Origin: Eledone cirrhosa
Taxonomy: Eukaryota
Direction of reading: 5' to 3'
DNA length: 64,000 nt
Assembly (NCBI GenBank): GCA_964016885.1
Contig: OZ024743.1
Span: forward strand, 352,656,001 to 352,720,000
Below, piece by piece: positions 1-48,242 of the stretch. Below the pieces are notes generated by a model. It was not told the DNA's origin, did not search any database, and saw only the letters and a program-made list of their open reading frames with translations. The position numbers were made by a program, and so were the translations under genes. Within the stretch, counting starts at the first letter, position 1, and each line of letters starts with the position of its first letter.

Positions 1-1483
1 TCTTTCTGTTACTTTCATGACCTGGTCCATCAGCTTTATACCTCTATAGTTTCCTCTATCTAGTGCATCACCTTTACCCTTGTAGCAGTTGACAATGATG
101 CTGCTGCACCAATCTTTTGGTATGACACCTTCTAGTATTACCTGGTTAACAATACGTGTGGTTATGGTGTGACCTACTGACCCAAATGCCTTCAGCATCT
201 CGGCAGCTATACCCGATGGACCGGTTGCCTTCCCTGTCTCCATATCTTTGATTGCCTTACTTACTACGCTGCTGCTGACTTGTACTGCTGGCCCCTCTAT
301 AGGGTCTACTTGGGGTAGGGTCTCTTCTTCCCATGCATTCTCCTCATTTAGTAATCTATCATAATGACTCTTCCACGCATCCTTCTTCTCAGCACTTGTG
401 AGGGCAAGCTCACCTTTATCATTCCGGATACACTTCTCTCCAACGACACCACAATTCTCTCTGACACACTGCCTCACAATCTTGAACACCTCCTGTTTCT
501 GGTCCTCACGTTGCAAGACATGCTTGAATTTTCTATCCTTCGCTTCCCTCCTAGCTAAGTATACTTGTCGCCTAGCTTTCCTCCTGGTCTCTATGTAATG
601 TACCCTGCTTCCCCCGTTCTTCCATTCTTTTCATGCCTGTCCCTTAGCCTTAACTGCCTCATCTACCTTATTGTTCCACCACCAAGTCACTCTCCTCCTG
701 CCTATGGTCTTACTCCAACCACAGATCTCATTTGTCGCCTTTAGTAAGTTATTTTTTAGGAACTCCCAGTGTTCTTCTACATTGAATATCTCTATCTGTT
801 CTTCTTTACTGTCATAGGTGTCGAGTAAAATATTTTTAAATCTGTTACTGGCTGAGGGGTCTCTCAGCTTCCAGTCTTCTCCAGGTTGCCTTCTGTTTCC
901 AAGTTCGTCTAGTTCTGACAATGAGGTCGCTGACAACTATGTTATGTTTGGAGGTACATTCTTCACCTGGGAAGGCTTTTGTGTTTACGACCGTCCATCT
1001 GTCATGTCCTCTGATGAGGATAAAATCTATCTGACTAGAATGCCCCCCTGATCTATAGGTGATCAGGTGGTTGTTGGGTTTTTTTAAGTTTGTGTTATAT
1101 ATCGACATGTCATTGGCGTCGCAGAAATCTAGAAGCCTGAAGCCTTCTTCCTTTCTTGTGCCAACCCCATGGCCTCCATGGACTCTATAGAAGCCGTCAC
1201 GGTGTTTACCTATGTGTCCGTTAAAATCTCCTGCAATGATTAGGAAGTCATTGTCGCTTGTTACAGCAGTAGTGTGCATTAAGGACTCATAAAACCTATC
1301 CTTAAGTTCGTCTGGCAACCCCGATTGGGGTGCGTAAGCTGATATTACTGTGGTAATTGTTTTATTCAGGGCTAGTCTGAGTTTAATGATTCTTACACTC
1401 ACCCTGTTCACAGAGATTACCTTATATACCCATTTGTCAGCTAGTAGGATACCTACACCACCCATCCCATTGTCATTTCCCAC
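1..1483 (-). mobile_element. RTE-clade LINE fragment (APE endonuclease, linker, RT N-terminus), degenerate; runs off the window start
   Basis: ORF 845-1483 has APE motifs (GGVGILL, VISAYAPQSG, IIAGDFNGHIG, SQIDFIL). ORF 631-936 (WWWNNKVDEAVKAK) and bases 1-600 are homologous to the LINE at 26.4-27.3 kb. Frameshifts present; truncated at a (TA)n tract. Confidence 0.93.
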
Positions 1484-1534: not shown

Positions 1535-2324
1535 AATATATATATATCTATATATTAATTTCAACAATGTCAGCATTCCGTGTGTCATAATTCTCGATTA
1601 TCATTGGTTCATAGGTTTCAAACGACTCTGCCCACCTCAACGACGCCAATGCATAATGCCAATAAGGGAGTGAGAGGGGAGAGTAAGAAACAGAGAAGCA
1701 AAGTGAACGCTGTGTTGGATACACTATGTATATGTGTCAGTGTAGAGACGTGTGTGTGTGTGATGTGTGTGGAAATAAGAGGGGAAGGAAAGCAATAACT
1801 ATTAACATGTGTGCGTGTGTATGTACGTGCACGTATGTTTATGTGTGTGTGCATGCAGCGTTCCACAGAAAGTAAAAACTATCAACATGTGTGAGTGTGT
1901 GCGTGTGTGTAAGTGCATGGGTGCGTGTGTAAGTTTGCATGCGTCGCTTCTGATTGCGGTGGTAATAAAACCTCCTCATATGCTGAGTCTGGCAAAAAGC
2001 TTGGATCCTATGGCCAGCCAGGGCTAGAGTAATATTGAAAAACGATTCTATTTTCGAAGTAGAAGGATCCGCCATATGGAGTTCTAACCAGGCCACCTCC
2101 CCGAGTTGAACTCTGGGCAACATTGACTGTCTATTACTCAGTGGCTAAGAGCCTGGAAATTACTGAATACATTTTTGTGTCATATAATTTGTTGTTTTAT
2201 TATTATAGCTGACCACTTATAGATAAGCATGTTTTCCATATCCATATTAATTTGGCATTTGTATAAACCATTTCAAGTAAATAGGGACCTTTTTTACATT
2301 GATGGACATCTTTTATATTAATTA

Positions 2325-25522: not shown

Positions 25523-28500
25523 TAAATAATCTTCTCCTTGTTAACTACCCCATACCCCTCCCTCCCGCCCCCACCTTTATTATTTGAACCAATCACAAGT
25601 CAACGGCCTATGCTATCACTTCTAGTTGCTTTTCGATATGATGGATGGACTAAGGAATTTCTGGAGAGTCTGAAGAATCTGGACACTCGAAGACAATGCC
25701 AAAGATAATGACAAATTCACCTCATGCTGACGAAAGGGCAAGGCCCCCTCCTCTTTGTTGCGGCCGCGGATGGCCAACATAACCCAAACCCCATCCCCCC
25801 CACCCCTTCCTGCGCCCCACCCACCAAACGCAATCCAAAACTTCAGAGTTGGTACCATGAATGTAGGCACCTTAAAAGGCCGCTCTAACGAGGTTGTAGA
25901 AATGCTTGAACGTAAGGAGGTTGATGTTTGCTGTATCCAAGAGACCAGGTGGAGGGGCGGGTCTGCTAGATTCATTGTGGGTAAAAAACGATGCTATAAG
26001 TTTTTCTGGGTGGGAAATGACAATGGGCTGGGTGGGGTAGGAATCATGGTAGCAGAAAAATGGGTGGATAAGATAATAGACATAAAAAGAATGAATGACA
26101 GAATAATTAACATAAGACTTGTTCTAAATGGAACTACTGTGACAGTAATATCTGTGTACGCGCCCCAATCCGGACTGCCTCGCAATCACTTTATCACCTA
26201 CAGATCAGAGGAACATACCAGCCAGTTAGATTATATCCTTACCAGAAGACGTGACAGAGTGTCTGTTGTAAACACTAAATCCTTCCCCCATGAAGAATGC
26301 ACCTCCCAACATAGACTGATAATTAGCAACCTCATAGTCAGGACGAGACGTACTAGACAGCAGAAGAGGACAATCCTCAGGAGAAAAATATGGAAGCTAG
26401 AAATAAATTTAAAAGCATATTACTTGATGCTTTTGACAGTAAGGAAGAGCATTTAGAGTCGTACAATATAGAGGAACAGTGGGAATTCCTGAAAGCAAAC
26501 CTGCTGATGGCGGCAGACAAAATCTGTGGCTGGAGCAGGCCTATAGGCAGGAGGAGAGTAACATGGTGGTGGAGGAGTCAATTAAGGCCAAAAAGCAGGC
26601 TTGGAACGTATGGCGGGATGGGGGAAGTAGAGAAGACTATCAAGTGGCCAGGAGGGAAGCTAGGAAACGAGTGTACTTCGCAAGAAGGGAAGCAGAGAAA
26701 AGAAAGTTCAAGCATGTTCTACAACGCGAGGACCAAAAACATGAGGTGTTCAGGATTGCTAGGCAATGTGTCAAGGAAAACCGTGATATTGTCGGCGAGA
26801 AGTGTGTACTTAATGATGATGGTGTACTTGCTATCACTGACGCTGATAAGAAGGTAGCTTGGAAGTGTCACTACGAAAGGCTACTAAATGAGGAGAATAA
26901 ATGGGAGAAAGACAGTCTCCCCCACATCGACCCAATAGAGGGACCAGCAGTGTTAGTCGAAGGTAGTATAATAAGTAAGGCAATCAAAGATATGAAGACG
27001 GGTAAGGCGGCTGGGCCTTCGGAAATAGTTGCTGAAATGCATGAAAGCTTCTGGAACAGTGGGACACACCATGGTCACCCGGATAGTAAACCAAGTCATA
27101 CAGAATGAGGTTGTTCCGAAGGACTGGCATAGCAGCATCATCATTAACTGCTTCAAGGGTAAAGGAGATGCCCTAGATAGGAGTAACTATAGAGGCATTA
27201 AATTAATTGACCAGGTCATGAAGGTCACAGAAAAAGTAATAGCGCAACTAATCAGAGAGAGAATTGATCTAGATGAAATGCAGTTCGGGTTTGTGTCAGG
27301 CAAAAGTACCACAGACGCTCTTTTCATTGTACGACAACTACAGGAGAAGTACCTAGCTAAAAGTAAACCCCTATACTTAGCTTTTGTCGACTTGGAGAAA
27401 GCCTTTGACAGAGTCCCCCGTTCCATTAGATGGTGGGCTCTTAGAAAACTAGGTGTTGATGAATGGCTTGTGAGAGCTATACAAGCCATGTATAAAGAAA
27501 CAGTCAGCAAGGTTAGAATTAACAACGAATATAGTAAAGAGTTTAGCGTAAAAGTTGGTGTTCATCAGGGCTCCGTTCTTAGCCCCCTACTATTTATTAT
27601 CGCCCAAACATGGAAGCATGGCCTAGAATCAAAAGGCCTTAAAATTAACCTGTCTAAGACTAAAGTTCTAGTTTGTAGGAAGGAAAATAGGGCGCCGGTC
27701 CCATCCGGGAAGTGGCCATGCTCAGTGTGTAGGAAAGGAGTAGGTAGAAACTCCATTTTATGTCCCAAATGGAAAGTATGGGTGCATAAAAGATGTAGTG
27801 GGATCACAGGTAAGCTAACTAAGAACATAGATTTTATATGTGGCCGGTGCTCTGGTGCAATAAGTAGCAGCAAGTGCCCACAGAATACTAGCTCATTCCA
27901 TTGCACAGATGGTTCTATAGAAATAGTGGACAGCTTCCATTACCTTGGTGACAAAATCAGCAGTGGGGGAGGGTGCTCTGAAAGTACAGTAGCTAGAGTC
28001 AGAACTGGATAGAAAAAGTTCAGAGAGCTTATACCACTATTAGCCGCTAAAGGGTTCTCCCTAAAAATGAAAGGCAGGCTGTATGATGTCTGCATACGAA
28101 CAGCAATGTTGCATGGCAGTGAGACCTGGCATTGTGTGCAGAGGATATACGCAGACTGGAGAGGAACGAAGCTTGCATGCTCCGCTGGATGTGTAATAGT
28201 AATATACGTGAACGGCAAAGCATAAACGAACTAAGGGAAATTTTAGAAATAAGAGGGATCAGATGTTGTTTACTCGAGAGAAAGCTACGTTGGTATGGTC
28301 ACGTGATGCGCATGAAAGACGACAGCTGTATAAAAAAGTGCAGGGCAATAAAAATAGACGGTAGCCACGGAGTAGGCAGACCCAGAAAAACCTGGGACGG
28401 CTTGATAAATTCCGACCTCACACACTTACACGTCTCCAAGACAATGTCACTGGACCGAGAGCTTTGGCGCTACACAGTAATAGAGAAGACCCGCCTTACC

Positions 28501-28890
28501 TAAGTACAAAGTAAAACCTACTACAGTCAGTAGGCACCTCTAACAAAATACACCCCCGTCCCACTACCCCCACCCCATCCACACCACCCCTTTGAATGTA
28601 AAGTTATGTTGGTACCACAACATCCAGCCCGAAACAAATGAGGTCGTGTAGGTGTCACGACAAAAAAACACACAGTCCACGCTGTAATGTGGCCGTGTAG
28701 GCAACACGGTAAAAACCTCCCAGTCCCACACTGTAAATGTGGTTGGTGTTAGGAAGGGCATCCAGCCGTAGAAAACCCGCCAGACAGTCCTATGCGAGCA
28801 AGACAACCACTCTTGCCTCAAGTGGGAAAACTCCCGTCCAAACCCATGCAAGCGTGGAATATGGACGTTAAACGATGATGATGATGATGT
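25523..28890 (+). mobile_element. Near-full-length RTE LINE (APE, RT with PHD-like insertion, 3' UTR, (GAT)n tail); internally deleted and non-autonomous
   Basis: GTMNVGTL, CCIQETRW, YAPQSG, QLDYIL (APE); NYRGIKL, QFGF, FVDLEKAFDRV, GVHQGSVLSPLLF (RT); CxxC..C..WVHKRC..CGRC; GRPRKTW. Frameshifts present and YADD missing. Interrupts an older SINE (25340-25520 continuing at 28890-29080). Confidence 0.95.
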
Positions 28891-38175: not shown

Positions 38176-38584
38176 AAGATAATCTCAAGTAGTTTGATAT
38201 GGGAAAAGGCTTATTTTTTCAAGTCAATATCATTTTTTATTTTTTTAAATTTTTTAAATCGCTTTCTTTTCTTTTTTTGCATGCTTACATGGGTTGGACA
38301 GATCTTCTCTAGCAAAAGGGTGAATGACATTTCACCCAATAAGGTGCTCACACCTGTGTATTACCCTATAACCCAGTGGTACTCAGAGAACCGGTTCCCT
38401 TGTAATCCCATGTTTCTTCAATACCTGTCCCATTTTGAATTGTCATCTAGTAATTTTTCACTCAACTACAACATTAACATAAGCAAGCTTTTCAAACCTC
38501 AATAATTGTATAGTCCCAAATGGAATTAAGTCTGAAGCAGCTCTTTTTTAACTGAACTGTTAATTTGCAATCACATTTGTAGTA

Positions 38585-39505
38585 GGCTATATTGGTATTT
38601 CATTTGATATATACACAATATACACTATAGTGGGGTATATTGGTATTTCATTTGATATATACACAATATACACTATAGTGGGGTATACTGGTATTTCATT
38701 TGATATATATACAATATACACTATAGTGGGGTATATTGGTATTTCATTTGATATATACACAATATACACTATAGTGGGCTATATTGGTATTTCATTTGAT
38801 ATATATACAATATACACTATAGTGGGGTATATTGGTATTTCATTTGATATATATACTATAGTTGGGTATATTGCTATTTCATTTGATATATATACAATAT
38901 ACACTATAGTGGGCTATATTGGTATTTCATTTGATATATATACAATATACACTATAGTGGGGTATATTGGTATTTCATTTGATATATATACTATAGTTGG
39001 GTATATTGCTATTTCATTTGATATATATACAATATACACTATAGTGGGGTATACTGGTATTTCATTTGATATATATACAATATACACTATAGTGGGCTAT
39101 ATTGGTATTTCATTTGATATATATACAATATACACTATAGTGGGCTATATTGGTATTTCATTTGATATATATACAATATACACTATAGTGGGGTATACTG
39201 CTATTTCATTTGATATATATACAATATACACTATAGTGGGGTATACTGGTATTTCATTTGATATATACACAATATACACTATAGTGGGGTATACTGGTAT
39301 TTCATTTGATATATATACAATATACACTATAGTGGGGTATACTGGTATTTCATTTGATATATACACAATATACACTATAGTGGGGTATACTGGTATTTCA
39401 TTTGATATATATACAATATACACTATAATGGGGTATATTGCTATTTCATTTGATATATATACAATATACACTATAGTGGGGTATATTGGTATTTCATTTG
39501 ATATA
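38585..39505. repeat. 48-bp minisatellite, about 19 copies, with two 39-bp variants
   Basis: Unit GGGTATATTGGTATTTCATTTGATATATA(C/T)ACAATATACACTATAGTG; contains the palindrome CACTATAGTG. Confidence 0.97.
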
Positions 39506-39513
39506 TATATATA

Positions 39514-39750
39514 TACTTTATTTCACATTGCTCCAGTTTACTCAGCTGTAGAAATGAGATGATAGGGACTGGAGTCCCTATCATTCCACTGGAAAGTGGT
39601 CGTGGAGGTGCCACGGCAAAAAAGCACCCAGCACTCACTGTAAATGAGGTTGGTGTTAGGAAGGGCATCCAGCTGTAGAAATCAAGCCAGAATCAATTCC
39701 CGTCCCACCCTTGCAAGCAGGGAAAAGCTGACGTATGATGATGATGATGA
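39514..39750 (+). mobile_element. SINE family B, 5'-truncated
   Basis: Near-identical to 14675-14910. Confidence 0.85.
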
Positions 39751-42427: not shown

Positions 42428-42810
42428 AAGTGGAGGTGAGTATTACACCATTTTCACTTTGGAGTTGAATATTACACCAGTTTCACTTTGGAGATGAATA
42501 TCACACCAGATTTATTTTGGGGGTGAATATCACACCAGTTTCACTTTGGGGGTGAATATCACACCAGTTTCACTTTGGGGGTGAATATTACACCGGTTTC
42601 ACTTTGGGGATGAATATCACACCAGTTTTACTTTGGGGGTGAATATCAGACCAGTTTCACTTTGGAGGTGAATATTACACCGGTTTCACTTTGGGGGTGA
42701 ATATTACACCATTTTCACTTTGGAGATGAATATCGCACCAGTTTTACTTTGGGGGTGAATATCATACCAGTTTCACTTTGGGGGTGAATATTACACCGGT
42801 TTCACTTTCA
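42428..42810. repeat. 29-bp minisatellite, about 13 copies
   Basis: Unit GGGGGTGAATAT(C/T)ACACC(A/G)GTTTCACTTT, head-to-tail with no spacers. Confidence 0.95.
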
Positions 42811-46337: not shown

Positions 46338-46424
<87 letters not shown>

Positions 46425-46596
46425 TTAACACAAATCAATATATTTGATAAACAAATCCTCATATTTATGTATGTATTGTAAATGACCAAGTTAGCTAGAT
46501 AGAAATATACTAATAATAATATTACAGTTTGCCTATCATGACTTAAGATAATACATCATAAATCAACAAAAACAAACTGTATTGGCAATGGCCGTG

Positions 46597-46725
46597 GTGC
46601 TTGGACAAATTTAAATTTCAAAATCAAACCTGTTCCGTAGGCAGGTTTAAACCTAAAAATCCAAATATGTTTCGAATAATGAAAAAGTGGAAGGAAGACC
46701 GCATTTTGATCTCCTCAGCAAGCAC
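46597..46725 (-). ncRNA. Type-I hammerhead ribozyme (left arm)
   Basis: Mirror copy of 47337-47465. Confidence 0.72.
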
Positions 46726-47336
46726 TATAAAAATTGGTATGTTCCACTTCAAAATATTTAGGAAGACTGTTTAACGCACGAGGTAACCTCATGCGGTTAT
46801 CCAGTGTCTAGCTAGCCACATACTCGTGCTGCTAGAAATAACAGCCGTTTGTATGGGGCTAAAATCAGCTCAACGAAGGAGCAGTGTAAAATCAATAATA
46901 ATAAGTTCAAATCTCAGGCGATCATTTACAATGAAATAGCTCGAAGAAAGACTATTCTGAGCCGTGTAATATAGGTTAACACAAATCAATATATTTGATA
47001 AACAAATCCTCATATTTATGTATGGTCATTTACAATACATACATAAATATGAGGATTTGTTTATCAAATATATTGATTTGTGTTAACCTATATTACACGG
47101 CTCAGAATAGTCTTTCTTCGAGCTATTTCATTGTAAATGATCGCCTGAGATTTGAACTCATTATTATTGATTTTACACTGCTCCTTCGTTGAGCTGATTT
47201 TAGCCCCATACAAACGGCTGTTATTTCTAGCAGCACGAGTATGTGGCTAGCTAGACACTGGATAACCGCATGAGGTTACCTCGTGCGTTAAACAGTCTTC
47301 CTAAATATTTTGAAGTGGAACATACCAATTTTTATA

Positions 47337-47465
47337 GTGCTTGCTGAGGAGATCAAAATGCGGTCTTCCTTCCACTTTTTCATTATTCGAAACATATTTG
47401 GATTTTTAGGTTTAAACCTGCCTACGGAACAGGTTTGATTTTGAAATTTAAATTTGTCCAAGCAC
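47337..47465 (+). ncRNA. Type-I hammerhead ribozyme (right arm); predicted cleavage after C47458
   Basis: Helix I GTGCTTG/CAAGCAC; core CTGAGGA (47344-47350); G...C-closed helix II; GAAA (47389-47392); long helix III CATATTTGGATTT..AAACCTG/CAGGTTT..AAATTTAAATTTG; GTC triplet at 47456-47458. Confidence 0.72.
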
Positions 47466-47615
47466 CACGGCCATTGCCAATACAGTTTGTTTTTGTTGAT
47501 TTATGATGTATTATCTTAAGTCATGATAGGCAAACTGTAATATTATTATTAGTATATTTCTATCTAGCTAACTTGGTCATTTACAATACATACATAAATA
47601 TGAGGATTTGTTTAT

Positions 47616-47675
<60 letters not shown>

Positions 47676-48242
47676 CATATCAGTCCACACTGTAAAGTGG
47701 TCATGCTGGTGTCACGACAAAAAGCACCCAGCCTACACTGTAAATGTGGTTGGCGTTAGGAATGGCATCCAGCCATAGAAACCAAGCCAAAATTAGTCCT
47801 AGTATGAGCAGGACACTGTTATCTGATCTAGCTTGTCTCACAATGGGACAACTCATCTAACCCATGCTGGCATGGAAAAATTGACATTAAACACTAATGT
47901 TGATGATGATATATATATTATATATATATATTATTTATATATAAATATGATTTATCAAAACTCTTGGATGATTTGAAATGTGAAATGTGGGAATCCAAAC
48001 TAACTGTAACAAGTCGGTCACTATCAATAATAGCATTATAAAATCAGGTACAATACCCTTAGTGATAGGCTAGTCGCTGCTGGTCACTTTTTTCTGACCC
48101 TAAGAATATTTTACCTGATATTATAAAGCAATTATTATTTATAACAATCAACTGTTGTTACAATTATTTTCTGCATTTGGATTCCCACATATATATATAT
48201 CTATGAGTATGTGTGTGTGTGTGTGTATATATATATGTTTAT

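Follow-up and report, generated by a model that had tools for sequence, protein, structure and literature searches.

A type I hammerhead motif with a long predicted flank-to-loop II helix in non-coding retrozyme units of Eledone cirrhosa

The non-LTR retrozymes of metazoans (Cervera and de la Pena 2020, PMC7229834; Li, Clavereau and Pollet 2026, bioRxiv 10.64898/2026.07.22.740005) are, in the available text of these accounts, non-coding and low-GC tandem units that carry one type I hammerhead each, pair strongly with themselves as circles and are proposed to have a Penelope-like origin. The repeat of Eledone cirrhosa that we describe here resembles them in these respects, and its 551-bp unit lies within the 51-972 bp range given for retrozymes in the accessible part of the more recent study (bioRxiv 10.64898/2026.07.22.740005). 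The differences concern both the hammerhead and the insertions. The published retrozymes present a short helix III and loop-loop contacts, whereas the units described here present a stable helix III hairpin of 15-65 nt, a helix II of 2-3 bp and a loop II of ~27-38 nt that is predicted to pair with the 5' flank. They are also mostly inserted as 1-2 units, often in two arms, in (TA)n.

A pseudoknot between stems I and II is found in ~40% of hammerheads and proved necessary for rapid cleavage in the cases examined; stem II of the pseudoknotted hammerheads is often 1-2 bp long (PMC3088659, in its available portions; a related structure is given in PMC11300833, Zhan et al. 2024). The predicted helix between the 5' flank and loop II, hereafter P0, would likewise replace the loop contact of stems I and II with a Watson-Crick helix, and it is found together with a very short stem II and with the U3-A8 variant of the core. 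Its connectivity is that of the type II consensus, in which the loop I side pairs with the strand that follows stem II, except that here the chain is opened within loop I. However, P0 is predicted to be three to four times longer (17-24 bp versus 4-6 bp), leaves a return linker of 5-14 nt and sits in a high-copy animal repeat. It also differs from the structure 8YDC (PMC11300833), whose pseudoknot is made by the loop of an additional hairpin (helix IV).

The hammerheads of Penelope-like elements (PLEs), as described in the available part of PMC4209133 (Cervera and de la Pena 2014), share with ours the type I topology, a tandem or inverted pLTR-like structure and the U3-A8 variant. Those of fungi and protists likewise present a large helix III and are active as monomers; they have no recognisable stem I-II contact in that text, where ours have the predicted P0. 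Those of metazoans are minimal, with a palindromic helix III in place of the 15-65-nt hairpin found here, and no ORF is attached to our units, in contrast to the PLEs. The type III hammerheads of satRPV and of HDV-like agents (PMC7936874 and PMC6466107, both in part) also pair the sides of helices I and II through enlarged peripheral regions, but by loop pairings of 4-5 bp and in infectious RNA circles. The core halves of the Naiad 'HHR_half_core' motifs (PMC8557442, Craig et al. 2021) and of the type-SGC hammerheads (PMC10085705) are, in the text available, 35-50 nt apart as they are here, and Naiad elements share the (TA)n targets and the two-armed insertions. This spacing made a link with the Naiad half cores promising; we rejected it because GAAA precedes CUGAUGA at the 3' end of Naiad_Ovul, a comparison of order resting on one example of the eight half-core Naiads in the accessible text. 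Retrozymes, pseudoknotted hammerheads, a long helix III and the U3-A8 pair are each already known. In the part of the full-text literature that our search covered, no type I hammerhead from animal repeats was described with a flank-to-loop II pseudoknot of 17-24 bp.

The hammerhead motif and its repeat unit

The window (the whole 64,000-nt stretch of DNA analysed here) contains, at 47337..47465, a motif in which all the hammerhead core positions are present: C3 U4 G5 A6 N7 G8 A9, G12 A13 A14, A15.1-U16.1 and H17 (Table 1). The blocks follow the order C-G-S, which is that of type I, and we therefore rejected a non-circular permutation (type SGC and others). A strict descriptor found only two sites in the 64-kb window, the motif and its mirror copy; together with the two-sided changes in helices I and II reported below, this places the motif beyond chance. 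Judged by its sequence, it is a genuine type I hammerhead motif in a non-coding retrozyme unit. The first-pass annotation of the locus had suggested that standard motif descriptors might miss it, and the Rfam hammerhead families indeed gave no match in the window (E<=1) or in seven related loci (E<=0.5). Rfam also misses smaller hammerheads in two of these seven loci (L143 and L202).

Most of the geometry that had been proposed for the motif was borne out. Its coordinates are right, the spacing of 38 nt between CTGAGGA and GAAA is exact, and helix III, put at ~63 nt, counts 64 nt between GAAA and U16.1 and is predicted to form an extended, G-U-rich hairpin (-18.2 kcal/mol). Since this hairpin is stable, no dimer would be needed through helix III. 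Helix II is as weak as had been described, with G-C and A-U followed by U.U in the window copy; it reaches 3 bp in A4, B, C, E and H, and 2-3 bp across the set. On the other hand, the extension of helix I by CAAT/ATTG can be drawn on the window copy, but it is formed in none of four folds and is absent from subfamilies B, C and E; its 5' half falls within P0 and its 3' half within the small hairpin that follows helix I.

Table 1. Positions of the insertion and of the parts of its hammerhead in the window
Feature	Position	Strand	Remark
(TA)n target, left	46341..46422		
Inverted repeat (palindrome)	46382-47024 / 47038-47680		
Mirror arm, 536 nt of unit and 71-nt run-on	46418..47024	-	
Mirror hammerhead including P0	46597..46750	-	core at 46718; ends mapped via the inverted repeat
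Non-coding retrozyme unit of 551 bp, subfamily A, right arm	47023..47573	+	period given by a direct repeat
First GCTC...GAGCT hairpin	47097-47124	+	4 nt downstream of the commonest 3' end (unit position 71)
Second GCTC...GAGCT hairpin	47177-47195	+	second 3'-end cluster (unit positions 143-156) at or just upstream
P0, 5' strand	47312-47333	+	predicted duplex with 47355-47378, 17 bp, -13.7 kcal/mol; outside the coordinates of the first-pass annotation
Helix I, 5' strand	47337-47343	+	pairs with 47459-47465, 7 bp
Core C3-A9, CTGAGGA (CUGAGGA)	47344-47350	+	sequence
Helix II, 5' strand	47351-47353	+	G-C, A-U, then U.U in the window copy
P0, 3' strand (most of the insert)	47355-47378	+	predicted duplex; two-sided changes among subfamilies
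Linker of 7 nt, far end of P0 back to helix II	47379-47385	+	
Helix II, 3' strand, and GAAA (G12-A15.1)	47386-47392	+	
GAAA	47389-47392	+	38 nt after the core CTGAGGA
Long helix III hairpin	47393-47457	+	length specific to the subfamily
GTC triplet	47456-47458	+	
Predicted cleavage site, after GUC (C47458)	47458..47459	+	hammerhead consensus
Helix I, 3' strand	47459-47465	+	
Small 3-bp hairpin 3' of helix I	47469-47478	+	also drawable in A, B, C and E
Run-on of 51 nt into the next unit	47574..47624	+	ends in (TA)n
(TA)n target, right	47619..47680		

The period of 551 bp is set by a direct repeat (47023-47093 / 47574-47644), and no frame of at least 120 aa overlaps the unit. The insertion is a palindrome of two arms, of ~1.1 units each, that differ at a single base (47159). 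Searches of the 3.0 Gb genome returned 2098 candidates for the unit of subfamily A (40 of them scored) and, reached via neighbouring insertions, the related families B (518-bp unit; 1372 candidates), C (unit of ~560 bp; 2833), E (1910, with the hammerhead region as query) and H, all of these counts being first-look candidates and not copy numbers. The 30 subfamily A candidates that were fetched are 94-100% identical, and the related families are ~70% alike. Thousands of copies of this architecture are probably present in this one animal genome. The contigs of three sequencing runs from one sample provided further variants only. Their summed depth, which is not a measure of copy number, peaks at 47418-47453, on the 3' strand of helix III, where it exceeds most bins of the unit more than tenfold, which hints that there are more subfamilies than we sampled.

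The two arms share three changes (47365, 47407 and 47421) that were seen in none of the 28 other family-A loci. One of these private changes weakens P0 and strengthens a hairpin that buries the core, and the other two weaken helix III. The presence of such decay-like changes in both arms, which differ at one base, suggests either arm-to-arm conversion or the copying of an RNA that was already mutated. As each arm holds a single hammerhead, the pair of cuts that would free a unit is not available, and a read-through transcript might fold back on itself over ~600 bp. These three properties (a single hammerhead per arm, the 600-bp fold-back and the private weakening changes) suggest that the window copy is probably a decaying daughter insertion, and it seems likely from the predicted structures that this copy cleaves poorly.

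Elsewhere in the window, we detected broken LINE-type frames at 25731-28503 (+) and 848-1483 (-), with endonuclease and RVT_1 matches and with a PHD-finger match just below the cut-off, as well as two minisatellites (38580-39516, 48 bp x 20; 42431-42808, 29 bp x 13). The region 2078-2156 (+) gave a weak Rfam match to HDV-like ribozymes (31 bits, below the cut-off of 44; E 0.07). Rfam matches to microRNAs were also obtained in the window and were rejected because they stem from (TA)n and from the palindrome.

Covariation among subfamilies and the predicted P0 helix

The first-pass annotation had looked to paralogous copies for covariation. Close paralogues yielded none, with virtually identical variation at core and non-core positions of family A (0.0137 and 0.0138, respectively); these copies are uninformative and the signal comes only from the diverged subfamilies. 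Across 13 representatives of A, B and C, two-sided changes were found at six of the eight pairs of helix I and at two of the three pairs of helix II. The covariation score of 0.272 was reached by none of 500 shuffles (0.171+-0.010; slid controls <=0.099), although this score is not a p-value, the structure having been derived from the same rows and the rows being related. In addition, the core pair C3-G8 is replaced by U3-A8 in C1 and C2, which is a known natural covariation of the core (PMC3088659 and PMC4209133, in the portions available). Helix III is 98% paired, with one-sided A-U/G-U changes at 8 of its 19 pairs and two-sided changes at none. Its length falls from 64-65 nt in A, B and C to 15 nt in E, with H intermediate at 28 nt. 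Great length of helix III, which had been considered the hallmark of the motif, is thus not its conserved trait; what is conserved is that helix III is, in all cases, predicted to form a stable hairpin.

Judging from this pattern of substitution, the hammerhead is under selection. The motif is very unlikely to represent a chance match or a relic free of selection for ribozyme structure. Such an origin would fit the lack of Rfam hammerhead matches, the weakness of helix II, the burial of the core in the fold of the window copy and the alteration of U4 in subfamily H. It does not account for the two-sided changes in helices I and II among subfamilies that are only ~70% alike, nor for the swap of C3-G8 to U3-A8, nor for the G10.1-C11.1 pair, which is the majority pair in all eight subfamilies. 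Regarding subfamily H (loci L225-L249), which is multi-copy and presents a 28-nt helix III and an intact P0, the U at core position 4 is replaced by A or C in 18 of 18 matched copies, a replacement that the anchor used for matching required. This change could reflect relaxed catalysis, and H may either tolerate a variant core or be a family that spreads while carrying a weak ribozyme.

The 38 nt between the core halves had been interpreted as a large insert in helix II. According to our predictions, little of this segment belongs to helix II: it supplies one strand of P0, a long helix whose other strand lies in the 5' flank and thus beyond the boundaries initially drawn for the motif. Loop II is complementary to the ~25 nt located just upstream of helix I, yielding a predicted P0 of 17-24 bp. 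P0 crosses helix I, so that the two together form a pseudoknot. Where Perreault 2011 counts as a pseudoknot at least 4 bp between the stem I side and the stem II side, 17-24 bp are predicted here.

A P0 duplex of this length was found in all 13 representatives, with z of -1.9 to -7.0 relative to dinucleotide shuffles, and at most 4 of 500 shuffles were as good in 11 of the 13. The weakest were those of the window copy and of one C copy. When extended to 135 distinct copies of the eight subfamilies (all the examined loci matching the anchors, which are not independent copies), the analysis gave z <= -2 for 113. Three E copies with a foreign 5' flank presented z of -0.2 to -0.8. In a family-level matrix, the best partner of each loop II was the flank of its own family, with the exception of the decayed C3 row, and P0 ranked among the best 0-5% of the duplexes of same geometry in nine units; the P0 segments were picked after their complementarity had been seen, which these cross-family and rank controls address only partly. 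On the other strand, the pairing was far weaker in E and C1 and equally stable in A and B. The pairing that resembles P0 in family D is weak (38 of 500 shuffles did as well), and this family was not counted.

Two-sided changes were also observed within P0. Its first three pairs, on the junction side, are UA, CG and UA in A3; GC, AU and CG in A4; and GC, UA and CG in C. Further two-sided changes affect one middle pair (CG versus UA in B) and one distal pair (GC versus AU). These pairs were counted by anchors, as MAFFT misregistered E and the P0 strands. The distal pairs are among the best kept, being 86-100% paired in most columns, and the subfamily of the window copy presents mismatches at two junction-side pairs. 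The register of P0 is nearly fixed: in six of the eight subfamilies, it begins 8 nt (7 nt in E) before C3 and 3 nt after A9, and subfamily B can also be paired in this common register. These comparisons show that the predicted complementarity between the flank and loop II is kept up across the subfamilies.

Predicted folds and possible roles of P0

The nested hammerhead was the minimum-energy fold in none of eight representatives, and the folds predicted for A and B bury the core. The alternative fold sequestering the core, which the first-pass annotation had named as a possible refutation, is indeed the nested fold of lowest energy for the window copy (-40.6 kcal/mol, versus -30.9 kcal/mol for the nested hammerhead). 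A fold combining P0 with helix I stacking is more favourable than the nested minimum by 5.6-11.3 kcal/mol in seven of the eight representatives, before any pseudoknot penalty. This penalty amounts to several kcal/mol. In the window copy, the corresponding margin is only 3.7 kcal/mol before the penalty and is probably smaller than it.

We lean towards the interpretation that the known pseudoknot contact of stems I and II takes an unusually long form in P0, one that would permit cleavage of the monomer. P0 would likely brace helices I and II, such that a single unit may be able to cut itself. We prefer this brace because nested folds never give the hammerhead, and because P0 with helix I stacking beats the nested minimum. 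P0 would form first, during transcription, as a hairpin whose loop of 17-18 nt holds the 5' strand of helix I, the core and the 5' strand of helix II, and this hairpin would prevent the burial of the core by loop II. Helix III would fold next, and the loop of the P0 hairpin could then pair with the 3' strand of helix I (7-9 bp) and with the 3' strand of helix II (2-3 bp). The stem I-II contact would be replaced by the junction side of P0, whose far end would probably fray or bend in units with a short linker.

The length of this linker bears on the main alternative, a doubtful one, in which a fully zipped P0 would hold the 3' strand of helix II too far away and a monomer or a circle would cut slowly. 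The P0 hairpin of one unit would then act on the GAAA-helix III-GUC module of its neighbour, and cleavage would sense multimers without a palindromic helix III. Linkers have medians of only 5-7 nt in A, B, E and H, for a P0 of 17-22 bp. With a straight and full P0, a rough estimate of the span indicates that the linker is too short in four of the eight representatives (A2, A3, B1 and one E copy; 59-67 A needed versus 35-63 A available), borderline in the window copy and sufficient in C1, C2 and E4. Fraying would moreover leave unexplained the strong pairing of the distal part of P0, and satRPV offers a precedent, as its pseudoknotted hammerhead requires a double hammerhead in the available accounts. 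The pseudoknot of satRPV plays an inhibitory role. However, the linkers of 11-14 nt in the C subfamilies are long enough, the internal loops of P0 permit bending, and the near-fixed register of P0 resembles that of an activating contact. In addition, the insertions are mostly of 1-1.5 units, whereas it is family D, with its palindromic helix III, that builds long arrays. We would put forward only tentatively that a 20-bp pseudoknot serves as a copy-number switch: the core, held in the loop of a long hairpin, would be tethered too closely to complete helix II within its own unit, so that circles survive and tandem transcripts are cut by exchanging enzyme and substrate halves between neighbours. 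If true, this would be a new kind of double hammerhead for which a palindromic helix III is unnecessary.

P0 is unlikely to be a mere hairpin of the resting RNA circle, contributing to its stability or to its shape as a template for reverse transcription and alternating with the hammerhead without any catalytic role. Whole units folded as circles are more stable than shuffles (z of -4.5 to -7.9 for the sense strand, 25 shuffles), and since the units are self-paired overall, one extra long helix is unsurprising by itself. P0 also takes the place of helix I in the nested minimum of the A3, C1, C2 and E copies, and other hairpins of similar strength exist in the A, B, C and H units. Nevertheless, a resting hairpin leaves unexplained the constant loop of 17-18 nt and the fact that P0 abuts both helices in six of the eight subfamilies. 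Without P0, a helix II of 2-3 bp must also close a loop of 27-38 nt, and the core is left buried in the predicted folds of A and B.

Insertion footprint and the link to Penelope-like elements

The 5' ends of the insertions are scattered, while their 3' ends cluster at two sites. The clustered ends account for 33 of the 44 segments of A, 35 of the 37 of B and 29 of the 30 of C, this last count being biased since the C query ended near one of the sites. At both sites, a GCTC...GAGCT hairpin, of which each unit has two, either coincides with the 3' ends or lies ~12 nt or less downstream of them. Both sites are used, one by each arm, in 5 of the 13 two-armed loci of A, 6 of the 8 of B and 8 of the 10 of C; the arms of the window copy end at unit positions 71 and 51 and fall outside this pattern. 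Most insertions span 1-1.5 units, with maxima of 2.1 (A), 3.8 (B) and 1.4 (C) units, and head-to-tail dimers to 3.8-mers are found in the relatives. Multi-unit insertions run unbroken through the cut site, as would be expected from a circular or an uncut tandem template.

The insertions further present 5' truncation, partial tandems, an inverted 5' arm, a tail at one end and a (TA)n target, and the same features are listed for Penelope-like elements in the accessible text of PMC8557442. The assignment of the hammerhead to a Penelope-type element, made in the first reading of the locus, is therefore supported. Elements of this kind are abundant in the genome, which contains 10,597 first-look GIY-YIG candidates, and the 20 regions that were fetched include RT-EN frames. 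No autonomous ORF with reverse transcriptase and GIY-YIG domains lies within the 551-bp unit, and no autonomous partner sharing the sequence of the unit was found in 50 PLE loci, out of >10,000 candidates. Copies of the unit inside these 50 PLE loci were considered as pLTRs and rejected, as they are bounded, separate insertions.

Under our preferred interpretation of P0 as a brace, cuts at two successive units would free a unit-length RNA, whose ligation would yield a circle. A Penelope-like reverse transcriptase and a GIY-YIG endonuclease, both provided in trans, may then copy the circle into (TA)n breaks, the copying starting just 5' of one of the two GCTC...GAGCT hairpins.

Several other elements of this genome carry the same hairpin or related ribozymes. 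The GCTC...GAGCT hairpin bounds the inverted arms of an unrelated 1.4-kb family, family F (L201-L220; 1604 candidates), which carries a small PLE-type hammerhead and for which 20 loci gave no tblastn match to four PLE proteins. It also bounds an element in locus L111 (2044-2080), and a loosely similar stretch was noticed by eye near the 5' end of Naiad_Ovul. Small hammerhead-like motifs, likewise identified by eye, are found in the 3' UTRs of L114, L115, L124 and L126 and at the minus-strand 3' end of L111, one type being almost devoid of helix II; we take these PLEs to be Neptune-like. Finally, family D (L131-L145), likely a dimer-type retrozyme, forms long arrays in which a 591-bp unit is repeated almost without change; its core is of the U3-A8 form, its helix II region spans 57 nt and its helix III is palindromic. 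Its presence in several of these elements makes the GCTC...GAGCT hairpin a candidate for a shared signal at which reverse transcription of the Penelope type would start.

The hammerhead with its predicted P0 adds an architecture that is unmatched by the Rfam models and that descriptors with short spacers would miss. It suggests that a long Watson-Crick brace, located beyond the usual boundaries of the motif, can lie hidden behind a weak helix II and its long loop, in which case constructs trimmed at helix I would be without it. With their varied linker and helix III lengths, the eight natural subfamilies constitute a test series for how the circular RNAs of retroelements may cut once and then stay intact, and the paired 3' ends beside a repeated hairpin point to where reverse transcription of the Penelope type may start.
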